This document shows, in pieces, positions 2,573 through 60,433 of a DNA stretch of 64,000 nucleotides. The translations under genes were made by a program, and so were the position numbers. Positions within the stretch are counted from its first letter, which is position 1. Every line of letters starts with the position of its first letter. This stretch comes from Scytonematopsis contorta HA4267-MV1 (lineage in GTDB: Bacteria; Cyanobacteriota; Cyanobacteriia; Cyanobacteriales; Nostocaceae), in NCBI GenBank assembly GCA_019359035.1, contig JAHHIC010000051.1, forward strand, positions 94,146-158,145, read 5' to 3'. The notes beneath the pieces were generated by a model. That model was given only the letters and a program-made list of their open reading frames with translations. It was not told the origin of the DNA and ran no database searches.

Positions 2573-3319
2573 ATGAAACTTAACCAAGTAATAGCAGTCT
2601 TACAGACAATTAAAGCTAATTCGACAAAGGCAAAAACAGCGGTTTACCATCAGATTCAAAAGAGTCCAATGTTTCAGGGAATTTCCCGCACTTACCAACC
2701 AGTAGCGGAAGATGGTTTTGTGTATCCTCCTGAAAATCAGACCTTACAATTAAAAGCTGAAGATTTACTCGGTCAATTTGAACAAGCTTGTAGCGAATTA
2801 TTTAATTTGTGTGCTACGCAAGATTGGGCTAATGCTGAAGCAAAAGCGGATATAGTGGTTGATGGAAATACTATTTTGAGGGAGGTTCCTGTTTCTTATC
2901 TACTGTTCTTGGAAAAGCAACTGGTTGATATTAAAACTTTTATTTCCAGTTTACCTGTTTTAGATACTACGGAAACTTGGGTTTACGACCAGCAGCAGGA
3001 ATGCTTTGCTACGGAACCAAAATTAACTACTAAAACAAAAAGGATTGTTAAGCCAGTAGTCTTATACGAAGCGACCAAAGAACATCCAGCACAAGTCAAG
3101 GAATCTTCGGAAGATGTACCCGAAGGTACTTGGAGAACAGTTAAATTTTCTGGTGCTATTTCTATTGCACGGCAAAATGAGTTGTTGCGTCGAGTAGATA
3201 AGTTAATGCAGGAAGTGATTTTTGCAAGGGAACAGGCTAATAGCTTGGAAGTGACCAAAAATAATTCTGTTTCCCGTTCTGTTTTTGGGTACCTGTTCGC
3301 TCCCTCAAATATTAGATAG
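2573..3319 (+). CDS. hypothetical protein (unknown family)
   Basis: The 248-aa ORF is preceded by GGAGGG seven nucleotides upstream of the ATG. Composition is balanced. It lies immediately upstream of the tRNA-like elements. Confidence 0.65.
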   Translation: MKLNQVIAVLQTIKANSTKAKTAVYHQIQKSPMFQGISRTYQPVAEDGFVYPPENQTLQLKAEDLLGQFEQACSELFNLCATQDWANAEAKADIVVDGNTILREVPVSYLLFLEKQLVDIKTFISSLPVLDTTETWVYDQQQECFATEPKLTTKTKRIVKPVVLYEATKEHPAQVKESSEDVPEGTWRTVKFSGAISIARQNELLRRVDKLMQEVIFAREQANSLEVTKNNSVSRSVFGYLFAPSNIR

Positions 3320-3324
3320 AATAT

Positions 3325-3474
3325 ACTTGGAGTACAAGTTAAGTCTTAGTGTCTATAGTAAAATTTGTAGGTTCGATTCCTACCCTCCCTACTTTAGGGG
3401 AGGTGGCCAAATGGTAAAGGCGTTTCTCGACACAATTTAGTTTAATGTCTTAGTTTTAGGCTATTACTCCAAGT
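3325..3474 (+). ncRNA. tRNA-like element A with permuted topology. The order is T-arm (GTAGG-TTCGATT-CCTAC, 3367-3383), acceptor 3' strand CCTCCCT (3384-3390), a 6-nt loop, acceptor 5' strand GGGGAGG (3397-3403), and a D-arm-like GCC-AAATGGTAAA-GGC (3406-3421). The whole is closed by a 10-bp helix formed by ACTTGGAGTA (3325-3334) and TACTCCAAGT (3465-3474).
   Basis: A canonical GGTTCGATTCC T-arm motif is present. The acceptor strands are perfectly complementary but arranged 3' strand first, so they form a capped hairpin. There is no anticodon arm. Confidence 0.4.
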
Positions 3475-3529
3475 TCAACGTTAAACTTCACTTTCTGCAT
3501 CGACCCCTGTAGATTAATGCACGCGGTAC

Positions 3530-3620
3530 ACCAGTTCAAATCTGGTTCGGCGCTTTTTATAAAAAGTTTATTTATCGTTTTGCGCCGATAGTTTAGAGGT
3601 AAAACACCACTGCTTAAAGA
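3530..3620 (+). ncRNA. tRNA-like element B with permuted topology. The order is T-arm ACCAG-TTCAAAT-CTGGT (3530-3546), acceptor 3' strand TCGGCGC (3547-3553), a 28-nt AT-rich loop, acceptor 5' strand GCGCCGA (3582-3588), D-arm GTTT-AGAGGTA-AAAC (3591-3605), and an anticodon-stem-like CCACT plus loop GCTTAAA (UAA) without a pairing partner.
   Basis: The two acceptor strands form a perfect 7-bp complement. The D-arm and T-arm geometry is textbook. The arrangement is 3' half upstream of 5' half. Confidence 0.4.
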
Positions 3621-3815
3621 ATAAATTTATAGGAACCGGAAATAAACTAGGCAGGAATGATGATTACAAGCTAAAAGCTGATAACTTTTGGTTACCAACC
3701 CCTGAGGCATGGATACTGCTTTAGGGGATTTTAAATAATAAGGGTGGCTAATCAGGTGGATAAGAAGTATATATTACAACTATTACACTTGGCGATTAGA
3801 AATCGCACCTACACA

Positions 3816-3842
3816 AGGAAAACCCACGAAGTTGGGTTTAAG
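3816..3842 (-). terminator. candidate intrinsic terminator downstream of the 3862-4284 gene
   Basis: On the minus strand AAACCCA-N6-TGGGTTT forms a stem followed by a T-rich run. Confidence 0.35.
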
Positions 3843-3861
3843 AATTAAGTTAACAGAACTT

Positions 3862-4284
3862 TTAAAAAAGTGTTTGGTTAGTTTTACTAATTTGCCAACC
3901 ATGCTTCTTTTTATTAGTACAAGTGACACCAGATTTTTTTGATACGCAAGTAAAACCTTGATTACGCCAAGTTTTACCATAGCCTAAAACTGGATATTTA
4001 GGATTAAATATAGTGTCACCGTGGCAGAATCGCTCGCTTTTTCCATTCAAATCCATACCAAAAGCATTACCCCATTCTAAGTTACAGTCTTTCGGTTTTG
4101 GTGGTAACTTTGCACTATTTATTTGTATGTCGCAACGCAGCTCTTTATTTTCCTGTGCTAAACAGTAGATATTGCCTGTGGGTGTCTGAAAGCCTGCTGT
4201 GTTTTGTGCGACTACGCTTAAAGCTGTCACGAAAAGTACCAAAGCTGTGGTTGTTACAGCAATATATACGTTTTTTAATCTCAT
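3862..4284 (-). CDS. secreted Cys-rich small protein (hypothetical). The start is reassigned to the internal ATG that gives MRLKNVYIAVTTTALVLFVTALSVVAQ.
   Basis: A signal-peptide-like N-terminus follows the internal Met. The mature part is Cys-rich. The tracked ORF of 175 aa begins further upstream with no better start context. Confidence 0.55.
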   Translation of the reverse strand: MRLKNVYIAVTTTALVLFVTALSVVAQNTAGFQTPTGNIYCLAQENKELRCDIQINSAKLPPKPKDCNLEWGNAFGMDLNGKSERFCHGDTIFNPKYPVLGYGKTWRNQGFTCVSKKSGVTCTNKKKHGWQISKTNQTLF

Positions 4285-4981: not shown

Positions 4982-5392
4982 ATGGACGAACAGTATCAAG
5001 TTAGCACACAAAATCTGAATGAGAACACCGTAATCACTGATTCTGATAGGAATTTTCATGCTCACAGTAACAATTCGATTTGGATTGCAGCAACTATTGC
5101 AGAAGATATTCATTCGCTAGCTAACAATCGTCATCAAATTGCATCCCAATGGTTTCGAGAGCGCTCTCGACAAGCTCAACTCAGTTTTAATGTTGCTGTC
5201 GGTTTGGCTGGAGCAACTACTATATTGAGTCTTACATTTGCTGTATCGGTTTGTATGAACAAAATTTCTGAAGCCACAGCAGCCGCAGGTTTGGGTTTGA
5301 CATCAGGTGCAGTTAGCGCGTATTGCTTTAAATTGTCGGATGACGCAAATAAAAGACTGGATGCAGCCGCAAAAGAACTTTTAGAAGAATAG
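4982..5392 (+). CDS. TRADD-N-associated two-transmembrane domain protein (cyanobacterial family)
   Basis: A strong RBS, AGGAGGGG, precedes the ATG. The motif RQAQLSFNVAVGLAGATTILSLTFAV is followed by a second hydrophobic helix. This matches the family's characteristic R-x-A-x-x-S-F pattern and 2TM layout. Confidence 0.7.
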   Translation: MDEQYQVSTQNLNENTVITDSDRNFHAHSNNSIWIAATIAEDIHSLANNRHQIASQWFRERSRQAQLSFNVAVGLAGATTILSLTFAVSVCMNKISEATAAAGLGLTSGAVSAYCFKLSDDANKRLDAAAKELLEE

Positions 5393-5867: not shown

Positions 5868-6611
5868 TTAATTAATAATTTCTCCTTTGTTATTGTCCAA
5901 CTTTTCACGCCATTTTTGGAGTTCTTCAGGTGTTTGTCTTACCCAATCTGTTACTTCGCCAACGATTTTTAATGGTGCTTGGGAGCGATATGAGCGTGTC
6001 GGATTACCCGGAAATTTTTTGTCTGTAACATTCGGGTCATTTTCAAAATCCCCTGTCGGTTCAACGATATAAACACGTTCACGTCCATCCCCTTTTGCTA
6101 ATGCAGCAGCTAGTCCCGCTCCATTAACAAGGGCTGTAAAATAAATGTGATTCATTTTGAGTTCAGATTTGTAATTAGAACTGCGCCCTGCTGTCAACAA
6201 ATCGCCAACTGGCAAATTTGCTTTCGTTCCATGATAAAAAGGACCTTTGTCAGAAGGTTTATCCTTAAACGAAGTTGCTAATTCATAATTCTTTTTTGCC
6301 TTGTCAGGGTCGCTTAAGTCCTCATAGCATTTAGCAATGTTTGAATATAGATTCGTGAAAGCACTCTTAACAGTGTCGTTATTTATTTTTAATGCAAACT
6401 GCAAAGCCGTCTCGAGCCATTTTAATTTATCGGAAACATTTTTTTGATGTCGGGCTACATAATGAGCTGAAATAAATTTTTCAAAGTCGTATGTCGCTTC
6501 GTTCCAGGCTTGAAGAAATAGTTTACTTGCTTCTTCAGGTTTGCCTTTTTCTTCCATGCTTATACCTTGAAGACAAAGTTTAACAACATTGTTATTTGGG
6601 TTGAATTCCAT
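5868..6611 (-). CDS. arr: NAD(+)-rifampin ADP-ribosyltransferase (Arr family) with an N-terminal helical extension of about 115 aa
   Basis: The C-terminal 130 aa carries Arr hallmarks: GPFYHGTKANL, HIYFTAL, RVYIVEPTGDFENDPNVTDKKFPGNPTRSYRS, and PLKIVGEVTDW. A GGAGA-type RBS precedes the ATG. Confidence 0.85.
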   Translation of the reverse strand: MEFNPNNNVVKLCLQGISMEEKGKPEEASKLFLQAWNEATYDFEKFISAHYVARHQKNVSDKLKWLETALQFALKINNDTVKSAFTNLYSNIAKCYEDLSDPDKAKKNYELATSFKDKPSDKGPFYHGTKANLPVGDLLTAGRSSNYKSELKMNHIYFTALVNGAGLAAALAKGDGRERVYIVEPTGDFENDPNVTDKKFPGNPTRSYRSQAPLKIVGEVTDWVRQTPEELQKWREKLDNNKGEIIN

Positions 6612-22717: not shown

Positions 22718-25700
22718 TTAATTTTTACACAACAGTCTATCTTTGTCAGTGACATTTGACCTATCAATTTCCTTCAAATTATGTAAATCTCTTTGCAGTT
22801 GGTCGCATCCGCGCTTTAATAAATCATCTAAATCAAAATTCCAAACAATGTACGTGCCATCATTTGAGGGAGAAACAATTGTTTTACCGTCTGATGAAAA
22901 ACTGACGCTATTTATTGAATCTGAAACTTTGCCCAGGGTTATAATTTCCCTTCCTGTTGCAGCGTCCCACAATTTTATATTATTCAGGCTCTGCTTTTCA
23001 CCTATGGTATTTTTAGTACTATCAGACGCTGAGACAATAATTTTACCATCAGGCGAAAAATTTACGCTATTAACTTTAGCTTCATGTTTTTTAGGAGTAG
23101 CAAATAATATCTTATTACTGTTAACGTCCAAAATTTTTACTACTCTGTCATTAGTCGCAAAAGCAAGAGTTTTACCGTCAGGTGAAAAGCTGACACTATT
23201 AATTGCGGGAGGTTTGTTTTCGTTCGTGTTAAAAGGTTCAAAAGAGTCAAGGATGTCTGACAAGTCGTCAATAGCGTCTGTATTTGTTTGCCTTGTTGCT
23301 TCTTCTTTGTGTTCTTTAATGTAGCTTCCTTTTGCGACATCCCAAAATATCACTGTACCATCAGATGATGCAGAAGCAATAGTTTTACCGTCGGGGGAGA
23401 AACTGACGCTATTGACCCAGTTTGTATGTCTTTCAAGAGTCTTGATAACTTTGCCTATTTTTGCATCCCAGAGTTTTACCGTTTTGTCATCACTTGCAGA
23501 AGCTATAATTTCACCATTTGGTGAGAAGCGAACGCTATTGACTGAGGCTGAATGTCCTTTTAAAGTCTTGATTTCTTTTACTTTAGAAGTATCCCAGAGT
23601 TTAATAGTGGCATCAGAAGATGCAGAAGCAAGTATTTTGTTATTTGGGGAGAAACTGACACTTAATACCTCTGCTGTATGACCTTCAAGCGTTACGGGTG
23701 TTCCTTGAAAAGAACGTTTCCACAATTTTACCGTATTATCAGAAGACGCAGAAGCAATCTGTTTGCTATTTGGGGAAATGCTGACATCAAGCAGATAATC
23801 GAAGCTTGCTTCGAGAGACGCAATGGTACTTACTTGCCCACTATTAATATCCCATAACCTGACCGTATCACCGTTGCTAACAAAACGTATGATTTTACCG
23901 TCAGTTAAGAAGCTGAGATTCTTGACAGAAGATGGTCTTCTCAAAGTTTTGATTGAATTACCAGTAGTCGTGTCCCAGAGTTTTACCATTTTGTCATTAC
24001 TTACAGAAGCAAGAGTTTTGCCATCGTTGGAGAAAATTACGCTATTAACTTTGCTTGTATGTCCTTGAAAAGTTTTAATCAAAGCACCAGTAGCTGCATC
24101 CCATAGCTTCACCGTTCTGTCAGTACTTGCAGAAGCGAGAGTTTTGCCATCATTGGAGAAAATCACATTACTAACTCTGCCAGTATGTCCTTTGAGGGTT
24201 TTAATTGAATTACCAGTAGCTACGTCCCAGAGTTTCACCGTTTTGTCATCACTTGCAGAAGCAAGAGTTTCGCCATCTTTGGAGAAAATCACACTATTAA
24301 CTCCACCAGTATGTCCTTTAAAGGTTTTAATAGAATTACCAGTAGCCACGTCCCATAGTTTCACCGTTTTATCATCACTTGCAGAAGCAAGATTTTTGCT
24401 ATCGTTAGAGAAAATAACGCTATTAACACTTTCTGTACTTACTTTAAGCGTCTTATTAGAATTACCAGTAGCTACGTCCCACAGTTTTACTGTATTGTCA
24501 TCGATTGCAGAAGCGAAAGTTTTGCCATCGTTGGAAAAAATCACGCTTGTAACCCTATCTGTATCCCCTTTAAGGGTTTTAATTGAATTACCAGTAGCTG
24601 CGTCCCACAGTTTTATTGTATTGCTATCACTTACAGAAGCGAGAGTTTTACCATCGTTAGAGAAAATCACGCTTGTAACCCTGTCTGTACTTACTTTAAG
24701 GGTTTTAACGGAGATACCGGTAGCTGCATCCCACAGTTTCACAGTATTATTATCGCTTACAGAAGCAAGAGTTTTGCCATCGCTGGAGAAAATCACGCTT
24801 GTAACAATGCCTGTACGCCCTTCCAAAGTTTTAATAGAAGCACCAGTGGTTGCATCCCATAGTTTCACCGTTTTGTCATCACTTACAGAAGCGAGAGTTT
24901 TGCTATCGTTGGAGAAAATCACGCTTGTAACACTGCTTGTATGTCCTTCAAAAGTTTTAATAGAATTACCAGTAGCTACGTCCCAGAGTTTCACCGTTTT
25001 GTCATCACTTGCAGAAGCGAGAGTTTTGTCATCGTTAGAAAAAATCACCCTATTAACTCTACCTGCATGTCCTTTAAGGGTTTTAATGGAATTACCAGTA
25101 GCTACGTCCCATAGTTTCACCGTTTTGTCATCACTTAGAGAAGCGAGAGTTTTGCCATCGTTTGAAAAAATCACGCTATTAACTCTACCTGTATGTCCTT
25201 TAAGGGTTTTAATGGAATTACCAGTAGCTACGTCCCAGAGTTTAACAATTTTGCCATCACTTACAGAAGCGAGAGTTTTGCCATCGTTGGAAAAAATCAC
25301 ACTAGAAACCGAATCTTTATGTCCTTTAAGAGTATAAATGGAAGTACCAGTAGCTACATCCCAGAGTTTCACCGTTTTGTCGTAACTTGCAGAAGCGAGA
25401 GTTTTGCCATCGTTGGAGAAAAGCACGCTTAAAACTCTTCCTGTATGTCCTTTAAGAGTGTAAATGGAAGTCCCAGTAGCCACGTCCCAGAGTTTCACCG
25501 TGTTGTCGTAACTTGCAGAAGCGAGAGTTTTGCCATCATTGGAGAAAATCGCGTTATAAAACTGACCCGTATAAGTATGAATGTTAGTGCCAGTCGCTAC
25601 GTCCCATAGTTTCAAAGCTTTTTCACCTACAGAAGCGAGAGTTTTACAATCCCTGGAAACAATCACGTCATTAACTCCGCTTCCATACCTATCTCCTGTA

Positions 25701-28567
25701 TGTCCTTTAGGATTGTGGGTGATGACCGTTGGTTGAAAATCTAGCTGGCTTTGTAATGCACTTATCACTTCAATTTTAGTATCAGGTTCTGCCCATAAGC
25801 TAAAAATGTTACGTTGTAATTTCTGTGCGGCTTTGATAACATCTACTAGTGCTTCATTATTATCGCCTGCATCATGCCTTTGTACAGATTGGCTACTTAA
25901 TTGCCGTAGTTCTGCATCATTTCTGCGAATTTCGCTAATCCCCGCAAAAAACGAAACCACCAGCAAACCCATAACCAAGCTAAAAATAGTTAAATTGCGT
26001 CTAAATTTCTGCTGATGTTGTTGTTTATTTCTTTGTGTGATACTTTTTTTAATAAAATCACACTCTTTGTCAGTTAATTCCTCACCCCGTTGCTTGTACC
26101 AGTCCTCAGCGACTGAAAGTGCGGTTCCCTGCAATAATGAATCTGGATTTTGATTATTTTTCTCCCATTCTCGCTCATCTTGCTTTAATCTTTCTTGCCA
26201 AACTCTAAACTCGCGGTTATTTTCTATCCATTTGCGAAAAGTTCCCCATTCCCGAATTAATGCTTCGTGGACAATTTCTACTGTTTCCACTTTATTAATA
26301 TCATCTCTCCCCGTCACCACCAAACGCTTGTCGGCTAACTTTTGCACCAAGTCCCAATTTTTATCTCCTACATCCTGACGAGTTGCTACCCGTCGGGTGT
26401 CTTCTGTTCCTGCTCCTGGACTTACTAGCTGGATAAATATTTGTTCTGCTTTATATCTGTTATCTAAATCCTGCAATTGCAAAGCATCTAAAACTTCATC
26501 AGCATGTTTCGCTAAAGCTTTTTCTAAACCCCCTATTTCGTCATAAGCTTGGTGAGTTAAATACCAATTTTCTTGCTTCTCCCACAACTGCGTTAAAGCA
26601 AATTCTAACAGAGGTAAACGTCCGGGATGACTACCCAAATCATCGATTAACTTATTGGTTAAACCTGACTGCAATTCTACCTTCATTTTCAGAGCGGGTT
26701 TTTCAATCGCATCCCGTAACTCTTCCCTTTCCATTGGTGTGAGCAATAAAGGTGTATGCTCTTGCAAAGCTTTACCCAACAGGGAATTTAAGACTATTCC
26801 CAAAAAATCTGCTCTTAAAGTTAGCACTAAGGTAAAATTTTGTGCGTATTTAATTGTGAAATATAAAGCCTTTAGAAAACTCTGACGTTCTGTTTCTGGA
26901 GTGAGGGTGTAAAGTTCTTCAAATTGGTCAGCGACTAATACTAAACGTTGATATTTTGAAGAGGAAATTAAAGTTTGAATAACATCGCATAATTTTGTCT
27001 CATCATCGTGCCAATCTAACTCTAAATCTATTTGCGCTAATCTATTATCATTAATTTTTGACCTAACTTTTCTATGCTGTAATATTGACTTGTCAGAAAT
27101 ATCGCTTAAAGCCACAGCTAAGTTATCAAAAGGTTTATTTTCCGGACGAAAACTGACTATCCCGATATTACCGACATTTCGCAACTTTGGAAGCAACCCT
27201 GCAAACACAACGCTAGATTTACCGCTCCCAGAAGCACCGATGACAGCAACTAAGGGTTGATTATTTACCGCTTCTCGCAAACTAGCAATAAATTTTTCTC
27301 GACCAAAATAAAAAGCAGCGTCTTCTTCCCGAAATGCAGACAAACCACGATAGGGGTTATCGGGAAGTTCTCCTGTTAACCCTCCCAAATCCGACCAAGT
27401 TGGTGGAGCTTCGGTTGTATTTTGACAGATGACTGGTAACCAGGTTATCCCCGGTAGCTGGTTTTGCAAGTCTTGTTCATCTGCGAGTTCCAATAACTTA
27501 TCTCTGGCTTCCCCTACGGAAGTAAATAAAGATTTACCGCTTGCAAAAGAACTTAAAAAATATCCAATGAACTTTTGAGCAATGATATCTGGTACAACTT
27601 CACGCCAAACAATAATGTAACCTAAATTTAATTCCGCTAAATCTCTGGCTAAACCCAAACCATCGCAGGAATTGAATATCGCTAGCTTTAACCCATTAGC
27701 TATTGCTGCACTGAGTGTTTTTTTGATATCCGTTAAGCTGAGGGAATCCCGTGGGTTAATGTTGATGACTCCAGTTTGGGTATCGTTTTGGATATCGTTT
27801 TGGGTTTCACTATGCCCTGCAAAAAACAGGATATCACAAGGTTCTTCCCAAAGCATGTTAAAGTCCGCACGACTGGGTTCTGTGAGGGAAATTAATTCTG
27901 TTCCTCGTTTCTTCAATTTTTGCAGTAACTCTTTGTCTGTGTGAGTATCGATACCTTGACTATTGCCAAAAATACTGATGATTCTGGCTCTCCTAATTTT
28001 CTTAGCGGATTCATCTGTAGTCAGCTTGTTTGTAGTAGATTCATCTTTAGATACAAGAGTTTTAGCTGTGTGATAGTTAAAACAAAGAGCAGCTTCTTTT
28101 GTATAATTTTGAGATGGTAAATCTTCAGTAAAAAAATCCCATTCGTGCCAAGGTAGACGGTGTAAAATATCTTTTGTTGCGGAGGATGTCACTTTTTGTG
28201 TGTGGATTATCAAACGAATTTCTGAATCGGGGTACTGCCGCAATACTGACGATAATTTAGACTTGAGAGGCTGCAACCACTGATGCATTTGATGGCGTAA
28301 ATTCAGTGCTTCGTTGCGACAATCTCTTTCGGAAATATGAGTTACTTGGTTATTGGTAAAACCGCGTCGAGCATTCTTTGATAGTAAAGCATAATACTGG
28401 TATTTCCAATGTTCGTAGGAAAGAGGAATTTCAGTATTAGGAGATAACTGGGCTGACAACTGCGCGATTTTATTTGGTAAGGTCACAAATGTAACCGCAA
28501 ACTTATTTTTATCAAACCCGCTCTCAAAATTACCATCACCGAACTCTAAGTTTACAAATATTTCCAT
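22718..28567 (-). CDS. 1949-aa multidomain NLR-like protein. Domains in order: N-terminal domain of unknown function, CHAT (caspase-like) domain, STAND/NB-ARC-like NTPase, predicted TM helix, then about 25 WD40 repeats.
   Basis: The CHAT His/Cys dyad context is ILFFAGHSE...LAIFNSCDGLG. The NTPase region contains PYRGLSAFREEDAAFYFGRE and the P-loop VIGASGSGKSS. A hydrophobic segment, LTIFSLVMGLLVVSFFAGISEI, may be a TM helix. Many GH...WD units are present, and the repeats are highly similar at the DNA level. Confidence 0.85.
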   Translation of the reverse strand: MEIFVNLEFGDGNFESGFDKNKFAVTFVTLPNKIAQLSAQLSPNTEIPLSYEHWKYQYYALLSKNARRGFTNNQVTHISERDCRNEALNLRHQMHQWLQPLKSKLSSVLRQYPDSEIRLIIHTQKVTSSATKDILHRLPWHEWDFFTEDLPSQNYTKEAALCFNYHTAKTLVSKDESTTNKLTTDESAKKIRRARIISIFGNSQGIDTHTDKELLQKLKKRGTELISLTEPSRADFNMLWEEPCDILFFAGHSETQNDIQNDTQTGVININPRDSLSLTDIKKTLSAAIANGLKLAIFNSCDGLGLARDLAELNLGYIIVWREVVPDIIAQKFIGYFLSSFASGKSLFTSVGEARDKLLELADEQDLQNQLPGITWLPVICQNTTEAPPTWSDLGGLTGELPDNPYRGLSAFREEDAAFYFGREKFIASLREAVNNQPLVAVIGASGSGKSSVVFAGLLPKLRNVGNIGIVSFRPENKPFDNLAVALSDISDKSILQHRKVRSKINDNRLAQIDLELDWHDDETKLCDVIQTLISSSKYQRLVLVADQFEELYTLTPETERQSFLKALYFTIKYAQNFTLVLTLRADFLGIVLNSLLGKALQEHTPLLLTPMEREELRDAIEKPALKMKVELQSGLTNKLIDDLGSHPGRLPLLEFALTQLWEKQENWYLTHQAYDEIGGLEKALAKHADEVLDALQLQDLDNRYKAEQIFIQLVSPGAGTEDTRRVATRQDVGDKNWDLVQKLADKRLVVTGRDDINKVETVEIVHEALIREWGTFRKWIENNREFRVWQERLKQDEREWEKNNQNPDSLLQGTALSVAEDWYKQRGEELTDKECDFIKKSITQRNKQQHQQKFRRNLTIFSLVMGLLVVSFFAGISEIRRNDAELRQLSSQSVQRHDAGDNNEALVDVIKAAQKLQRNIFSLWAEPDTKIEVISALQSQLDFQPTVITHNPKGHTGDRYGSGVNDVIVSRDCKTLASVGEKALKLWDVATGTNIHTYTGQFYNAIFSNDGKTLASASYDNTVKLWDVATGTSIYTLKGHTGRVLSVLFSNDGKTLASASYDKTVKLWDVATGTSIYTLKGHKDSVSSVIFSNDGKTLASVSDGKIVKLWDVATGNSIKTLKGHTGRVNSVIFSNDGKTLASLSDDKTVKLWDVATGNSIKTLKGHAGRVNRVIFSNDDKTLASASDDKTVKLWDVATGNSIKTFEGHTSSVTSVIFSNDSKTLASVSDDKTVKLWDATTGASIKTLEGRTGIVTSVIFSSDGKTLASVSDNNTVKLWDAATGISVKTLKVSTDRVTSVIFSNDGKTLASVSDSNTIKLWDAATGNSIKTLKGDTDRVTSVIFSNDGKTFASAIDDNTVKLWDVATGNSNKTLKVSTESVNSVIFSNDSKNLASASDDKTVKLWDVATGNSIKTFKGHTGGVNSVIFSKDGETLASASDDKTVKLWDVATGNSIKTLKGHTGRVSNVIFSNDGKTLASASTDRTVKLWDAATGALIKTFQGHTSKVNSVIFSNDGKTLASVSNDKMVKLWDTTTGNSIKTLRRPSSVKNLSFLTDGKIIRFVSNGDTVRLWDINSGQVSTIASLEASFDYLLDVSISPNSKQIASASSDNTVKLWKRSFQGTPVTLEGHTAEVLSVSFSPNNKILASASSDATIKLWDTSKVKEIKTLKGHSASVNSVRFSPNGEIIASASDDKTVKLWDAKIGKVIKTLERHTNWVNSVSFSPDGKTIASASSDGTVIFWDVAKGSYIKEHKEEATRQTNTDAIDDLSDILDSFEPFNTNENKPPAINSVSFSPDGKTLAFATNDRVVKILDVNSNKILFATPKKHEAKVNSVNFSPDGKIIVSASDSTKNTIGEKQSLNNIKLWDAATGREIITLGKVSDSINSVSFSSDGKTIVSPSNDGTYIVWNFDLDDLLKRGCDQLQRDLHNLKEIDRSNVTDKDRLLCKN

Positions 28568-33217: not shown

Positions 33218-33291
33218 TGGTAAAAGTATAGGAATCGAACCTATTACCAATCGGTTAACTGCCGACCGCTCTTCCAGTGAGCTAACTTTTT
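33218..33291 (-). tRNA. tRNA-Asn(GUU)-like gene. It has an unusual all-A/U acceptor stem and may be a pseudogene.
   Basis: Reverse-complement read: acceptor AAAAAGT, D-arm GCTC-ACTGGAA-GAGC, anticodon arm GTCGG-CAGTTAA-CCGAT with anticodon GTT, T-arm ATAGG-TTCGATT-CCTAT, then ACTTTTA-CCA. The 1:72 pair is A/A. Confidence 0.5.
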
Positions 33292-33292
33292 T

Positions 33293-33365
33293 TGGTGTAT
33301 GATGAAGGACTCGAACCTTCGTCCAGCCGATTTTTCGGATGCTCTGCCAACTGAGCTAATCACAC
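33293..33365 (-). ncRNA. Anticodon-less tRNA-like element with alanine-type acceptor features (G3:U70, A73, encoded CCA)
   Basis: Reverse-complement read: acceptor GTGTGAT/ATCATAC including a G3:U70 wobble; D-arm GCTC-AGTTGGCA-GAGC; T-arm GAAGG-TTCGAGT-CCTTC; then A-CCA. The anticodon arm is replaced by a 15-nt segment with a short CCGA-AAAA-TCGG hairpin. Confidence 0.45.
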
Positions 33366-51200: not shown

Positions 51201-51412
51201 CTGCCGATGGGATAGCTTACAGACAACTCATCAACCACAACGATAAATTTATCAAAACCCACCCTCTCCACTCTCCATAAAAATTTCTAGGAGATAAATA
51301 TAGTTCAACAACCATATCCGAAATTATACGGAAACAAATATAATCATTTCCGGAATCACTTAGGTAGAGTAAGTATCATATAGCAACGTGCTGACTGGGA
51401 AAAGGTCGTGTG

Positions 51413-53461
51413 ATGAATCAAGAAAACAAAGAAAACGCCAAAGGTCACCAAACTCAAATCAACGATAGCGGAACTGCTAATATCGTTGATAACACCAGCA
51501 CGACAAACCAGTCAGCACAAGGAACTGGCAATAACTTATCAATAAATAACAGTAAATACGACCAAAGACAAGCCAATATAGCTGGTATTGTCGATACTGC
51601 TCATAGTGGCAGCAACATACAATTTAATCAATATATTAACCAACCCCCCCGTGAACCAATAAAACCCGCAAACAAAATACCCCACCAAGGAACCTCCCAT
51701 TTCGTCGGACGAGATAACGAACTCGCACTTATCCACGAAAAATTCACCGAGCAAAACCACACAGTTGCAATTTCCGCAGTTGCAGGGATGGGTGGTGTTG
51801 GTAAAACAGAGCTAGCAGTAAAATACGCGAGAGAGCATATTAATGATTATCCTGGAGGAACTTGTTGGTTTAGCGTCCGTTCTTCTAATATTGCAACAGA
51901 AATTCTCACCTTCGCCAAAAATGACCTGCGATTAGAAATACCTCAAAAAGACATTCAAGAACAACCCCTAACGCTACAACAACAAATAGACTGGTGTTGG
52001 AGAAATTGGCAACCACCAGATGGGGTAGTATTAATAGTATTTGATGACGTTACTGATTTAGAGAATTTTGCTGATTATTTACCGAAAAATAACCGCTTCC
52101 ACGTCTTAATCACAACCAGATTGCGAGAAATTGACGCTAACATCGAGGAAATATCTTTAGATGTGCTGTCACCAGAAGAAGCCTTAAGATTATTTACTAA
52201 TATAGTTGGTGAAAAAAAGGTAAATAAAGAAGCAGAAATAGTCAAAGAAATATGTAAATGGCTAGGATATTTACCGTTAGGGATAGAATTAGTCGGGAGA
52301 TATATAACTAAAAAACCCCCTCATTTTACTTTAGCAAGAATGCTAGAGCAATTAAAGCAGCAGCGATTAGAGCAAGAAGGGATAAATCCACAGCAAAAAA
52401 CATTAAGTACAGCGCAACTTGGTGTCAAAGCAGCGTTCGAGTTAAGCTGGTTAGAATTGAACGAACAAACGCAGAAATTTGCTGCACTATTAAGCTTATT
52501 TGCGGCAGAGATTTTTGCCTGGGATTGGGTAGAGTCTATAACTCAGTCGCTAAATTGGGATGAGGATGATGTAAATAAAGCGATTGAGGAACTTTATCAA
52601 CGGCATTTGGTTAACTCTTTAGAAGAATCAGATATATTTTACTATAAAATTCATACTTTAATCCGCGATTTTTTACAAGATAAGTTAACAGTATTACCAG
52701 AAATAGACGAATTTAAAAGAGCGTTCGTGGGTACTTTTATCGAAATAGCTCAAACAATTCCTGATTCACCGATTTTAGAAGAAATAAATTCAGTAAAAAA
52801 CACAATTCCCCATTTAGCGGAAGTCGCAGAAAAATTAATTGATACAGTGAGCAATGAAGATTTAATTTGGGCTTTTCTTGGCAATGCTAGATTTTATGAT
52901 GGACAGGGTTTATATACATTAGCATCACCTTGGTACGAACAATGCGTATCTGTAGTCAAATCTCGCTTGGGAGAAAATCATCCTGGTTATATGGAATTAA
53001 AAAAAATGTCAACAACGAACAACAACAACAACAAATCTAGGACTATATAGAGACTTTACATTGTTTGCATGTAAATAAAATGCATTATAGAAAAAGCTTT
53101 ACACGATGCGGACATTGTAACTAAAGTCAAGTTACTTCCAAATGGTTCCTAAACCTTTTGTTGTTGTCGTTGTTGACATTTAGTTTATATTCCACATAAC
53201 TTAGACTATGCTACCAGCTTAAACAATTTAGCTTTTCTCTACTACTCAATCGGAAAGTATGATGAAGCAGAACCGCTTTTTCTCCAAGCTTTGGAGTTAA
53301 GAAAACGCATACTGGGAGAAAATCATTCAAATACAATAGTAGTCAAACAAAATTTAGCTATTTGCTGGGTTAAAGGACTTGAAAAAGGTTATTTCTCAAT
53401 CGAAGTACTGCGCGAAAACCCTCTTTTCATCCAAATAATTACGGAGCTATATCAACAATAA
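51413..53461 (+). pseudogene. NB-ARC (STAND) NTPase + TPR gene disrupted by a MITE insertion in the first TPR
   Basis: The P-loop reads GMGGVGKTELA, Walker B reads VLIVFDDV, and the GLPL motif reads LGYLPLGIEL. The in-frame TPR continuation LDYATSLNNLAFLYYSIGKYDEAEPLFLQALELRKRILGENHSNT resumes at 53201 in the same reading frame. Stop codons lie inside the inserted element. Confidence 0.75.
53005..53180. mobile_element. MITE-like insertion of ~175 bp with (CAA)n-rich terminal inverted repeats
   Basis: The left TIR TGTCAACAACGAACAACAACAACAACAAA (53007-53035) is the reverse complement of the right TIR TTTGTTGTTGTCGTTGTTGACA (53157-53178). The interior is AT-rich and non-coding. Confidence 0.75.
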
Positions 53462-57478: not shown

Positions 57479-60433
57479 TTAAGAATTCCAGACTTGATAA
57501 AAATCTAAATAAGTCATATTTTCCGCACAATGCCACAGTAATTTATAACAAAATCCAAGAGTTTCCGTGACATCATTATTTACTTCATTCTCAAAAAAAT
57601 CTCTTAAAGATATAATTACTTCTCGTAGCTGTTCAACAAGTAAAACTTCTTTTAAATTATCAGATGCGCGTTTGCGAAGTGATTTATCGGGAGATGATTT
57701 AACAATATTTAATAAAGTGTAAAAAGCCACAGAGTTTCCTGGGTCAATTTGGGCTAATTTATAAGCTTTGTTTCGACGTGTAGAGTCATCTTTAGCGAAC
57801 TCAATTCCCTTGAGTAAAGAAGAAATTTTTTGAGCTTTTAATAGTGCTGAATAAGTTTTATAAGTATTTTGTTTCGGTACAGATGTTTTGAACTTAAAAG
57901 CAGACAAATTAGAATTAGATGCAGCGGATGTCATACCGCGTAAAGTCACCAAATTATCGACTACGATTCTTTTCAAAGATGCATCGGTTGCAATTTCTGC
58001 TATTTTCTCTAATGTTGAGATTGCTAACTGGTTGCTCGTATCGATTTTCCCTAAACTATAGGCTACTTTTCGTTGTATGGATAAGTTTTTAGTTGACTTT
58101 ATAATTTCAACTAATGCAGTAACTGCTGCTTCGTTAAGAGGGTCTACTCTACCTAGATAGTGTGCTATTTGCCAACGAAAATTTTCTTGACGAGCGGTTT
58201 TTAGAATTTTTTCTAGTACTGAAATAGCAACTTGATTCTGCGGGTCAAATGATTTTCCTAAACTATAAGCTGCGTTCCAAATGTAAAATTCGTTTTCGCT
58301 TGATTGAATGAATTCTTCTAAAGCGACAATTGCTTTTGTGCGTTCGGTTTTTAGCAAAGCTACTCGCGCACTTTCGACAATTGAAACTGGATAATTGTAC
58401 CACTTATGTATTTTTTTATCAAAATAACCAAATCGCCATTTAATTAATTGTCGCACAATTACATCCGCGTTGCGACAATCGGTAAACTCGGCAATTCCTA
58501 GCGCGGCTAAAAAATAAGCTTGATATTGGTAATAACCACCACACCCGTCTTGAAAATTAATTAGCGCTTGAATAAATTCTTCCTTTTGTACTTGTGGTAT
58601 ATCATCCCTACCTAACCAGAGTAAAATTACTTCTCGCCACTGGGGTTCAAAAATACGATAAATCCCTTGAGTACAGTCATCCAGGTTATAGTGTAAAAAA
58701 TATTGCCAATCCGGAATTGCTTGTGCAGCAAAATACTCTTGAAATGTGGGATGATAAAATGCATAAACTTTTTCTCCCAGAGTTTCGGAGATACCTATTT
58801 GATTTAACCATCCAAGCTGAAGCGCTAATTGGAAAAAACCGTTATCTGGCTCACCCAAAACTTCGCAAACAAATCGATGTCTCAGACGAAATTTTGTTTT
58901 TTCCTGGGCAATTGCGAGTAAAGCCAATTCACTGAGTGCGGTATTTAGCTGTTTTCGTTGCGCGTATGTTGTTGGGAAACGGTCTTGTTTCCACTCATAA
59001 ATAGCCTCAACAAACTGCTCATAAAGCATTGCTTTGGTGTTAGGAAAACTACCTTGAGTTAATCCCCAAGTACGACATAACAGCGCTAAACGTAAGGGAT
59101 TTTTGACTGCATCCTTAATTCGTCCTCTTCCACCCTTGTCTAATTCGGTACGCAGTTTTTCTCCTAACTGTGGATTATTCTTAAACCAACGACAGATAAA
59201 TTCCCCTACTAAATCACCAGACTTTTGTAAGGTTCTGTGTGACGTGCCGTAAGAAAAACTCAGGTTACGATATGTATCAAAATTTTCTAGCGCGTTCTTT
59301 CCTGCATCCCATACGTTCAAGCGACAGGTAAGGATTATAGTGGCGTCTGCTACCCAACCTTTGAGGAAAGTCGCAAGCATTGATAGGGCTTTGGTTGACT
59401 CTATTGTCATTTCATCCACCGCGTCTAGCAGCAACCACACTCGTCCTTGGTTAAATAAAGTGGTAAATTCCATTTCCATTTCTGGAGAAATCTGTGGTTT
59501 ACGGGTAGCATTTTTTAGCCAATCTTGAATTAGGTATTCTTCTAGAGTTTTACCCTGCAAATCAGCCAAAGAGACCCAAATCGGTAGACCAGAGGTTTTT
59601 TCTAATATTCCTGCAGCAATTCTTTGCAACAGGGTAGTTTTTCCTGCACCTGGTTCTCCCAAAATAGCGAGACGTTTACTTTGTTGTTGTAACACTTGTT
59701 GGAGAAATTCATCGTTAGCAAAAGTTTGTGTTGATTCCACATCTTCAGGTTCGTACAAACGCGAACCCTCGTAGGGTGCGAAATCATTATGACGACGCTC
59801 TCTTCCTTTACGTTCTACTAAACCTAGAGGTACGTAAACCTCATCTAACTCAAAAGTTACCCCATCCATACTAGTCAGAGGGTTAGTGGTTAGTCGTTTA
59901 TGATGTTGCGCTTCTAGAGTATCGCGGCAGATGTTTTGCCATTCGGTTTGCAATTCCACATCGGGAATAGCCTCGGACTTTATAGCTTGGGACTTTAATA
60001 CTTGGGGGGAGGGGGATAATTTTGAGCTATGACGCTGTTCCCATTCTTGGTCAAATTTTTGTAGGTTGGCAAGTTGGTCATTGCGATCGCACCAAAGTTT
60101 TAGGGTAAAGTGCCAAGTTTCCGAGCCGCTGCGTGTGGGACGGTTATCTTCAAGAATTTCTAAATAATCCGCAAATCGTTTGAGTGCTTCTTTAATTTGT
60201 TCGGCGTTAAGTGGGTTGTTGGGGACGATTGTTGCTGTGAGCGTTGACAAATAACGCACTTTGGTTCGGACAACTAGTTTATTTTCTGTGTGCCAACGAG
60301 TTTGTATATGAGGACGCAAAGCATCAATAAGGGCTTCATCACAGTCTAACTCGTCATTGGCATAAGCCAACAACGCCTCAAATAAAAGGCGTGCTCGCTT
60401 TTTTGCTTGTTGACCGTAACTTGCTCTTGCCAT
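57479..60433 (-). CDS. NACHT-family STAND NTPase with an N-terminal helical domain and C-terminal HEAT repeats
   Basis: The P-loop reads ILGEPGAGKTTLL and Walker B reads VWLLLDAVDE. The C-terminal 350 aa contain repeated ...AAYSLGKI/AHYLGRV... HEAT-like units. Confidence 0.85.
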   Translation of the reverse strand: MARASYGQQAKKRARLLFEALLAYANDELDCDEALIDALRPHIQTRWHTENKLVVRTKVRYLSTLTATIVPNNPLNAEQIKEALKRFADYLEILEDNRPTRSGSETWHFTLKLWCDRNDQLANLQKFDQEWEQRHSSKLSPSPQVLKSQAIKSEAIPDVELQTEWQNICRDTLEAQHHKRLTTNPLTSMDGVTFELDEVYVPLGLVERKGRERRHNDFAPYEGSRLYEPEDVESTQTFANDEFLQQVLQQQSKRLAILGEPGAGKTTLLQRIAAGILEKTSGLPIWVSLADLQGKTLEEYLIQDWLKNATRKPQISPEMEMEFTTLFNQGRVWLLLDAVDEMTIESTKALSMLATFLKGWVADATIILTCRLNVWDAGKNALENFDTYRNLSFSYGTSHRTLQKSGDLVGEFICRWFKNNPQLGEKLRTELDKGGRGRIKDAVKNPLRLALLCRTWGLTQGSFPNTKAMLYEQFVEAIYEWKQDRFPTTYAQRKQLNTALSELALLAIAQEKTKFRLRHRFVCEVLGEPDNGFFQLALQLGWLNQIGISETLGEKVYAFYHPTFQEYFAAQAIPDWQYFLHYNLDDCTQGIYRIFEPQWREVILLWLGRDDIPQVQKEEFIQALINFQDGCGGYYQYQAYFLAALGIAEFTDCRNADVIVRQLIKWRFGYFDKKIHKWYNYPVSIVESARVALLKTERTKAIVALEEFIQSSENEFYIWNAAYSLGKSFDPQNQVAISVLEKILKTARQENFRWQIAHYLGRVDPLNEAAVTALVEIIKSTKNLSIQRKVAYSLGKIDTSNQLAISTLEKIAEIATDASLKRIVVDNLVTLRGMTSAASNSNLSAFKFKTSVPKQNTYKTYSALLKAQKISSLLKGIEFAKDDSTRRNKAYKLAQIDPGNSVAFYTLLNIVKSSPDKSLRKRASDNLKEVLLVEQLREVIISLRDFFENEVNNDVTETLGFCYKLLWHCAENMTYLDFYQVWNS

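Follow-up and report, generated by a model that had tools for sequence, protein, structure and literature searches.

Two predicted tRNA-mimic RNAs of YrlA-like architecture are fixed 3' companions of the DUF7873 gene in bacteria and large phages

Bacterial Y RNAs that mimic transfer RNA (tRNA) have so far been understood only as partners of Ro60, a ~500-aa ring protein of the TROVE/vWA type. In Mycobacterium smegmatis, the YrlA RNA has a 7-bp acceptor stem, is cut by RNase P both in vitro and in vivo, and has CA added to complete its CCA end (PMC4201824). Here we analysed a stretch of 64,000 nucleotides (nt) from the cyanobacterium Scytonematopsis contorta HA4267-MV1 (assembly GCA_019359035.1, contig JAHHIC010000051.1, positions 94,146 to 158,145 of the forward strand), referred to below as the window, in which an earlier note had pointed to two tandem elements displaying tRNA parts in a permuted order. 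These elements, A and B, are predicted to be two separate, conserved and structured non-coding RNA genes, and the pair is a fixed 3' companion of a gene encoding a DUF7873 protein across bacteria and phages, which is the most informative fact about it and was absent from that first reading. The gene-plus-two-RNA unit seems to represent a novel variation on the tRNA-mimic RNA-protein particle. Neither the RNAs nor the unit is described in Rfam 15 or in the searchable literature, although subscription papers were beyond reach and may hold a prior description; the literature on tRNA-like RNAs, Y RNAs and phages yielded only work on Ro60/YrlA and a survey of viral structured RNAs that names no such motif.

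The unit is three-part and self-contained, and all its features lie on the + strand in the order DUF7873 gene, RNA A, RNA B, terminator. The gene (2573-3319), the conserved partner of the RNAs, encodes a 248-aa protein that matches Pfam PF25283 over its full length (E = 1.4e-100). The whole predicted RNA A (3325-3474) begins 5 nt past the stop codon and is followed by RNA B (about 3482-3664), both delimited by folding, covariation and a covariance model. Downstream of B, an intrinsic terminator with a stem and a U-run (3699-3733; terminator search and alignment) closes the unit in Nostocales and likewise in Myxococcota, and conservation ceases there. A T-arm immediately followed by a 7-bp capped hairpin is expected by chance 0.18 times per 64 kb (Markov-simulated, both strands), while the window holds two such patterns on one strand, 163 nt apart.

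Beyond the window, we fetched 80 genome loci around DUF7873 relatives from Cyanobacteria, Actinomycetes, Planctomycetota, Myxococcota, Acidobacteriota, Verrucomicrobiota, Trueperaceae and others, that is from at least six phyla; with the viral loci described below, about 165 loci were covered overall, and neighbouring genes were compared over 81 genome and 82 viral loci. A pattern scan located both permuted elements directly 3' of the gene, on the same strand, in nearly all 80 loci. From the cores we derived one small covariance model per element (R1, A; R2, B), and ~70 of the 76 loci with sufficient downstream sequence gave an A-type match with R1 50-180 nt past the gene and a B-type match with R2 ~150 nt further. 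R1 scores 65 bits at element A of the window, whose sequence is in the seed, and the independent loci score 45-69 bits, when compared to 20-43 bits for junctions between true tandem tRNA genes. One such junction lies in the window itself (33219-33365, - strand) and was used as a negative control: just 1 nt separates a tRNA-Asn(GTT) from the tRNA-like gene that comes after it (Rfam tRNA 52 bits, encoded CCA end) with an abnormal anticodon loop, reported by ARAGORN as 'anticodon (aa)' and reading ...GCAUCCGAAAAAUCGGC..., and the junction scores 20-29 bits with R1/R2. Among the less regular loci, L046 and L047 have very long acceptor loops, and in a cyanobacterial metagenome-assembled genome (MAG; L018, 3723-5675) both RNAs are present 1.95 kb downstream of the gene, which suggests an insertion separating the gene from the RNAs. 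A Planctomycetaceae MAG carries a third permuted element (L031 5976-6045, - strand; T-arm, CGGCGCG/AGCGCCG capped acceptor and D-arm, 43-50 bits), which adjoins a tRNA-Arg/His/Arg array and lies opposite in strand to the DUF7873 unit, at a distance of 2 kb; from this case, permuted elements may also exist without a DUF7873 gene.

DUF7873 is also encoded by 75 isolated phage genomes, many of them of 120-300 kb, with hosts in Vibrio, Gordonia, Rhizobium, Klebsiella, Serratia, Arthrobacter, Pseudanabaena, Ralstonia, Rhodococcus and Microcoleus, and by at least 358 IMG/VR viral contigs. The gene-A-B order is kept in most of 80 IMG/VR loci and in four of the five isolated phages checked. In Gordonia phage Phendrix, DUF7873 is gp144, in the middle of a large tRNA array, and the next 500 nt, which are unannotated, contain A (63.7 bits) and B (54.8 bits); A and B likewise follow the gene in Pseudanabaena phage Pam2, Ralstonia phage phiRSL1 and Klebsiella phage FBKp24. 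All four phages and the 80 viral loci lie outside the R1 and R2 seeds. Co-oriented tRNA genes, up to 36 of them, are found within 5 kb in 34 of the 60 viral loci scanned, and four of these 60 (L089, L107, L149 and L160) encode a phage transfer-messenger RNA (tmRNA) within a few kb of the unit together with tRNA arrays; in each of these phages the unit belongs to an island of translation-related RNAs. No protein neighbour of the unit is conserved across the viral loci. The FBKp24 record (MW394391.1, vB_KpM_FBKp24) annotates a 'tRNA-Sup-TTA' that overlaps B (its 5' portion, T-arm and acceptor 3' strand; L170 3739-3818), probably a misannotation due to the permuted element, and it also annotates a promoter between the DUF7873 gene and A.

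Covariation gives the elements their structural support. Loops were trimmed to 4 nt for the core alignment, and the selection of loci demanded paired T and acceptor stems, the D-stem not being a criterion. Within that selection, 98.8% of the cells are paired in the core of A (32 distinct sequences) and 11 of 15 pairs display changes on both sides, with a covariation score of 0.695 as compared to 0.166 when shuffled and at most 0.175 when partners were slid. The core of B (38 sequences), selected in the same way, is 98.5% paired, with both-side changes in 15 of 16 pairs and a score of 0.933 versus 0.273 when shuffled. The variety of pair types and the covariation of the D-stems, GCC/GGC with GCG/CGC in A and GUUU/AAAC with GCUC/GAGC in B, are free of the selection effect. 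Because MAFFT misaligned the arms across phyla, cross-phylum covariation is given for the cores only; the automatic cross-phylum search for the closing helix of A was unreliable and was replaced by clade-wise RNAalifold, which yields 100 pairs of which 28 are compensatory in Nostocales, and 84 pairs of which 42 are compensatory in Myxococcota. The search for covariation in related genomes, proposed in the earlier note, thus came out decisively in favour of both cores and, clade by clade, of the closing helices.

In element A, a tRNA mimic with a tRNA-Leu-like upper half, helix P1 joins 3325-3334 (ACTTGGAGTA) to 3465-3474 (TACTCCAAGT) in the minimum free energy fold and in the clade-wise RNAalifold consensus. 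Its core GGAG(C/A)/(G/U)CUCC is kept across phyla, as expected for a protein-binding site, and shows compensatory variants (GGAGUA/UACUCC, GGAGCG/CGCUCC and GGCGUG/CACGCC). A 5' arm (3335-3348), short in this window and bearing the 6-nt periodic repeats described below, leads to helices P2 (GTGTC, 3349-3353) and P3 (AGTAA, 3357-3361), supported by RNAalifold and the YrlA alignment; the TAT bulge between them occupies the position of the YrlA 'CUA'. After a 5-nt variable region comes the T-arm (3367-3383, GTAGG/TTCGATT/CCTAC), which is 100% paired across loci and has double changes at two of its five pairs. The acceptor hairpin (3384-3403) consists of the 3' strand CCTCCCT (3384-3390), the loop ACTTTA (3391-3396), which opens with A-C, and the 5' strand GGGGAGG (3397-3403), and all seven pairs are compensatory among loci. 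The dinucleotide TG separates it from the D-arm (3406-3421, GCC/AAATGGTAAA/GGC, with GG in the loop), and the P3 3' strand TTTCT (3423-3427, one U.U) and the P2 3' strand GACAC (3429-3433) follow in the RNAalifold structure at 3423-3433.

Element B is built alike, with outer helices P1/P1b whose 5' strands (3487-3498) pair with 3651-3664 (fold and RNAalifold), P1 being weakened in the window, and a helix P2 (3506-3515 with 3624-3633) that includes several compensatory pairs. Helix P3, the equivalent of the anticodon stem, joins GCA-c-GCGG (3519-3526) to CCAC-TGC (3607-3613) in the Nostocales alignment, where it varies as GUC/GAC, GCA/UGC and GUU/GAU. The T-arm (3530-3546; pattern and covariation) is followed by an acceptor hairpin (3547-3588) with the 3' strand TCGGCGC (3547-3553), a 28-nt loop and the 5' strand GCGCCGA (3582-3588), again compensatory at all seven pairs, and by the D-arm GTTT/AGAGGTA/AAAC (3591-3605). 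A conserved internal loop, TTAAAGAATA (3614-3623), lies between the P3 and P2 3' strands (3607-3633; alignment and RNAalifold), and a small conserved hairpin stands 3' of B (3669-3693; fold and RNAalifold). The order of T-arm, capped acceptor hairpin and D-arm that the earlier note had read in A and B is therefore correct in all its named features, and so is its 10-bp closing helix for A, since the minimum free energy fold recovers P1 along with the T-arm, acceptor and D-arm (z = -3.3). The note had gone too far, on the other hand, in calling the acceptor of A perfectly complementary, as it has six Watson-Crick pairs and one G.U, and it had missed both the partner of the anticodon-stem-like segment in B and the helices that close this element.

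The architecture is that of YrlA. In both A and B a T-arm, a closed acceptor stem-loop and a D-arm sit inside a stem formed by the RNA's own 5' and 3' parts, and the full shared order runs from closing stem through CUA bulge, short variable (V) region, T-arm, capped acceptor and D-arm back to the closing stem. The YUAY/CUA at the start of the V region in YrlA corresponds to CUAU in A (3353-3356), which is kept in Nostocales, while B is without an equivalent. As in YrlA systems, the nucleotides of the tRNA elbow are retained, the RNAs often come as a tandem pair beside the partner gene on the same strand, and phages with tRNA arrays carry them. The Rfam YrlA model (RF02553) aligns with A over its full length, CUA bulge included, at 25.1 bits (E = 0.005), below its gathering score of 69; in an E-value scan of 3200-3900 against Rfam this weak match was the sole find, with nothing for B, and a scan at gathering level of the window and 20 diverse loci returned true tRNAs only. 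The differences concern Ro60. The partner is DUF7873, with ~245 aa and an orphan fold; the Ro60-binding motif GNCGAAN0-1G, placed close to the 5' end in YrlA, occurs in one of 51 A and seven of 59 B elements, at inconsistent positions, its place being taken by the basal helix GGAGC/GCUCC; and an rsr/TROVE gene, which for YrlA lies within ~4 kb on the same strand, is found neither in the annotated neighbour clusters (81 genome and 82 viral loci) nor up to 10 kb away in L081-L084, nor in the large open reading frames (ORFs) of the window. Also, 6-nt periodic arms distinguish the pair from YrlA/YrlB, as does a full tRNA-like head on both RNAs and not on one. The YrlA-type assignment of the earlier note is thus upheld for architecture and for the sub-threshold full-length match of A, while B matches no family, the Rfam tRNA model is negative and the Ro60 features are lacking. 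Judged from these alignments, A and B would work like a YrlA-type tRNA mimic that is outside the Ro60-linked family as currently defined. In seven of the 82 viral loci, too few for linkage, a VWA-domain protein is encoded 2-3 kb downstream of the unit (including L134 7955-8749); Ro60 carries a vWA domain.

Other described RNAs share single traits with the pair. Two-piece tmRNA likewise places a T-arm and an acceptor 3' strand with CCA before the acceptor 5' strand, has a small protein partner (SmpB) and occurs near phage tRNA arrays; unlike it, A and B have a D-arm and lack G3.U70, a tag frame and pseudoknots, and DUF7873 is unrelated to SmpB by sequence-profile search. We rejected a two-piece tmRNA after negative results with ARAGORN and the Rfam tmRNA model (a T-loop match of 6 bits only) and for want of a conserved acceptor G.U. 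Permuted tRNA genes of Cyanidioschyzon merolae, other algae and some Archaea also have the 3' half upstream of the 5' half with a short linker at the acceptor end; these mature through a splicing-endonuclease circle into normal anticodon-bearing tRNAs, whereas the outer ends of A and B are long conserved stems. A canonical tRNA gene was discarded as well, there being no anticodon arm or normal cloverleaf, and ARAGORN and the Rfam tRNA model call neither element at 3325-3664. Because they lack an anticodon arm, A and B are not permuted tRNA genes either, as the earlier note had offered. TRAP, with GAG/UAG repeats, and HutP, with UAG repeats, bind triplet repeats as multimers. Here too, short units recur at a fixed 5-7-nt spacing in single-stranded RNA near a small-protein gene, but the repeat unit of our elements varies by lineage and no fold similarity to DUF7873 was found, so this is an analogy only. 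Type III antitoxin RNAs are ~34-36-nt tandem repeats upstream of a toxin gene; this type of system was set aside for A and B, which are downstream of the gene, single-copy and equipped with their own closing stems, have no 34-36-nt tandem repeats and gave no PADLOC match.

The ends of the acceptor hairpins resemble those of real tRNAs. The capping loop varies from 3 to more than 70 nt and is unconserved apart from its first bases. The acceptor 3' strand is followed by A in all but one of 48 A elements (47 of 48), and by U (46 of 56) or G (8 of 56) in B; then comes C in 40 of 48 A and 47 of 56 B elements. A full NCCA, for which the chance expectation is ~1.6%, is encoded by ~36 of 105 viral elements, 17 of 56 bacterial B and 3 of 48 bacterial A elements, and both elements of FBKp24 read ...ACCA. 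To judge by the sequences, discriminator plus C or NCCA is the signature of a real tRNA 3' end. The sequence prerequisites known from the M. smegmatis type of YrlA are present, namely the 7-bp stem and the discriminator followed by C, with NCCA encoded by roughly one third of viral elements and a similar share of bacterial B; by analogy, this signal predicts a similar processing of A and B. Because of the tRNA-like 3' end and this precedent, we infer that the cap is removed and that the mature RNAs would be nicked with a free CCA end.

A second signal comes from the arms that link the basal helix to the tRNA-like head. In the 5' arm of A (32 non-redundant loci), identity at a lag of 6 nt is 0.45, when compared to 0.26 in shuffled sequences (z = 14.4), and a lag of 12 gives z = 9.5; the periodicity is weaker and still significant in the other three arms. 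The hexamer is lineage-specific (GAAGCU, CAACCU, CAGCAU, GACUUA or GCGUUA) and has the same sense on both arms, which therefore cannot simply pair together. By analogy with TRAP and HutP, such periodic single-stranded units suggest a multimeric binder. As for the heads, the D-arm of A is nearest to tRNA-Leu D-arms among the 355 tRNAs of the fetched loci, the planctomycete/actinomycete type matching perfectly, and A carries A73 as tRNA-Leu does; B carries U73, typical in the fetched loci of tRNA-Gly and tRNA-Cys. Leucyl-tRNA synthetase does not use the tRNA anticodon, so that leucylation of A is conceivable, though unproven. The discriminator plus C, often extended to NCCA, the periodic arms and the tRNA-Leu-like D-arm of A are the three traits particular to this unit. 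The acceptor sequences of A and B differ in most loci; in phage Pam2 (L087 5852-6076) they are identical (CUCGCCC/GGGCGAG) and the discriminators are still A and U.

The DUF7873 family comprises 5570 homologues, every one named hypothetical, and 2625 cluster representatives at 50% identity, almost all of 243-250 aa and without domain fusions; identity between phyla is ~45-50%. The AlphaFold2 model (mean confidence, pLDDT, 90) displays four or five long helices and beta hairpins, with an invariant EATKEHPAQ loop joining the strands of a long hairpin. Apart from DUF7873 itself, which is all that the Pfam and NCBIfam profiles match, the protein belongs to no PHROGs, PADLOC or NCBIfam family; the searchable literature, open access in scope, has no paper on DUF7873, and an earlier description in subscription papers is possible. 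In a Foldseek search of the PDB, many chains of Cas7, the Cascade backbone, stood in the top rows at very low probability and a TM score of ~0.1. Cas7 binds RNA in 6-nt steps; the resemblance of the model is not significant and is treated as a coincidence until tested.

Taken together, these observations make it probable, though well short of certain, that DUF7873, A and B form an RNA-protein particle that is independent of Ro60 and whose RNAs are matured like tRNAs. Each RNA would present the upper half of a tRNA, with acceptor, T-arm, D-arm and elbow, atop a long stem formed by its own 5' and 3' regions. DUF7873, possibly as a multimer, would bind the basal stem GGAGC/GCUCC, the 6-nt periodic single-stranded arms or both, giving a particle without Ro60. 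The acceptor cap would be a feature of the precursor: RNase P may cut 5' of the acceptor 5' strand, and the 3' strand may be trimmed to discriminator plus CCA, leaving a nicked RNA with a free tRNA-like CCA end. The exposed heads, A like tRNA-Leu and B with U73, could then engage factors that recognise tRNAs, and the placement in phage tRNA arrays points to a role in tRNA metabolism or in a phage-host conflict over tRNAs. In a bolder form, which we put forward tentatively, the unit would represent a previously unrecognised family of Ro60-independent particles of bacteria and large phages, in which a DUF7873 multimer sits on the hexamer arms, nicked anticodon-less half-tRNAs ending in CCA are aminoacylated or read by tRNA-end enzymes, and phages use them in the fight over the tRNA pool.

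Several points weigh against such a particle. Binding of DUF7873 to A and B would follow from genomic linkage alone, and the model has no significant structural relatives in the PDB or BFVD and no recognisable RNA-binding fold. The gene stands without the RNAs in three loci (L017, L021 and L055), and the homologue of a Vibrio phage, at 26% identity, is accompanied by a weak match only. In a Polyangiaceae MAG (L065, 3790-3870) A lacks the tRNA-like core; it retains there the basal stem and the hexamer repeats (GAGCACAACCUCAGCAUCAAUCG...CUAUCGCUCCAAG) beside an intact B, and the loss reflects either a deletion that arose naturally or an artefact of assembly. An encoded CCA is common and not universal, and it shows no clean correlation with CCA encoded by neighbouring tRNA genes. 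The high percentages of pairing in the T and acceptor stems are partly there by construction, because the selection of loci required those stems to be paired. Finally, the search for rsr/TROVE covered neighbourhoods, which leaves room for an rsr gene elsewhere in the genomes.

This last point bears on a competing explanation, in which A and B are ordinary YrlA/YrlB RNAs serving a Ro60 (Rsr) encoded elsewhere, and DUF7873 is linked incidentally or is an accessory of the Ro60 particle. The full-length alignment of A with its CUA bulge at E = 0.005 speaks for it, as do the YrlA and YrlB pairs known beside rsr and the mycobacteriophages that encode Ro60 together with YrlA and tRNA arrays (PMC4201824). 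Yet 25.1 bits are far from the gathering score of 69, which nothing in the window or the 20 diverse loci attains for YrlA; the Ro60-binding motif is restricted to the one A and seven B elements mentioned above, no TROVE gene is a neighbour, and A and B are linked to DUF7873 just as tightly as YrlA is to rsr, all of which makes this explanation unlikely. We are similarly doubtful about a role as tRNA decoys or anti-defence RNAs that soak up or mislead tRNA-attacking enzymes, with DUF7873 as a mere chaperone, a proposal that concerns function. Embedding in phage tRNA arrays, sometimes with tmRNA, and the retention of elbow and acceptor without an anticodon loop would suit it; however, the best-known tRNA-targeting defence nucleases cleave the anticodon loop, which A and B lack, bacterial chromosomes commonly carry the unit too, in housekeeping surroundings that are unrelated, and PADLOC gave no match. 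There is likewise little to expect from the idea that A and B are cis-acting parts of the DUF7873 mRNA, as 3'-untranslated stabilisers, processing signals or an autoregulatory sensor, and not independent RNAs acting in trans. In its favour, A begins 5 nt past the stop codon, no clear terminator occurs before the one that follows B, and tRNA-like 3' structures can block exonucleases. Two elaborate RNAs of ~150-190 nt with conserved stems, periodic arms, discriminator plus CCA and tertiary nucleotides nevertheless exceed what stabilisation needs, and the gene and the RNAs are separated by anything between 31 and 122 nt, and by 1.95 kb in L018. Against a purely cis role also stand the promoter annotated between gene and A in FBKp24 and a speculative -10 element for A in the Nostocales alignment: the TAGAAT at 3317-3322, which overlaps the DUF7873 stop codon, belongs to a TA[G/A]AAT that is invariant across 12 Nostocales loci, ~8 nt upstream of helix P1.

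Two further explanations were weighed. If A and B were permuted genes for real tRNAs or for a two-piece tmRNA, processed to a translating molecule, the 3' half preceding the 5' half, the 7-bp acceptor, the discriminator and the frequent NCCA would be accounted for. This is highly improbable, since there is no anticodon arm and the ends are stems of 30-60 nt with internal loops; neither ARAGORN, a program able to recognise permuted tmRNA, nor the Rfam models for tRNA and tmRNA call them, no G3.U70 is conserved and, to our knowledge, bacteria lack the splicing endonuclease used for algal permuted tRNAs. Debris, be it scars of tRNA-targeted integration, decayed tandem tRNAs or junctions of two identical tRNAs, can practically be dismissed, and here the earlier note, which had argued against integration scars, judged rightly. 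Tandem tRNA junctions do match the models weakly (20-43 bits), but the true elements score 45-69 bits and have no flanking tRNA remnants, and an order, spacing and covariation conserved in more than 150 independent loci across phyla and phages already refute debris. Altogether, the Ro60-independent DUF7873 particle is the explanation we favour.

The surroundings of the unit are otherwise variable. All-against-all clustering of ORFs over genome and viral loci revealed no conserved neighbour besides DUF7873, except for small sets restricted to individual clades (AI-2E transporter, peptidase M1, lysis enzymes and, in viral loci, the VWA protein), and the neighbours in genomes are unrelated to one another (AI-2E transporter, peptidase M1, ABC transporter, homocysteine synthesis and regulators). 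The window is itself rich in genes of the conflict-system type, at 4982-5392 (+), 5868-6611 (-), 51410-53050 (+), 57479-60433 (-) and 22718-28567 (-), comprising a TRADD-N-associated 2-TM protein, a TPR-Arr (rifampin ADP-ribosyltransferase-like) fusion, NB-ARC, EAD4-NACHT-HEAT and a 1949-aa nSTAND1-WD40 protein; none of them is kept beside DUF7873 in the other loci.

These data indicate that the RNA design known from Ro60-bound Y RNAs has a second dedicated protein partner, a very uniform and conserved family of ~2,600 clusters at 50% identity. They also expose a recurring annotation gap, in which 'empty' stretches of 400 nt contain two predicted RNA genes that Rfam 15 lacks and, in at least one phage record, part of B is labelled as a suppressor tRNA. 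The unit gives a testable handle on the function of DUF7873, on why phages add tRNA-like RNAs beside their tRNA arrays, and on whether anticodon-less RNAs ending in CCA get charged or are otherwise used.

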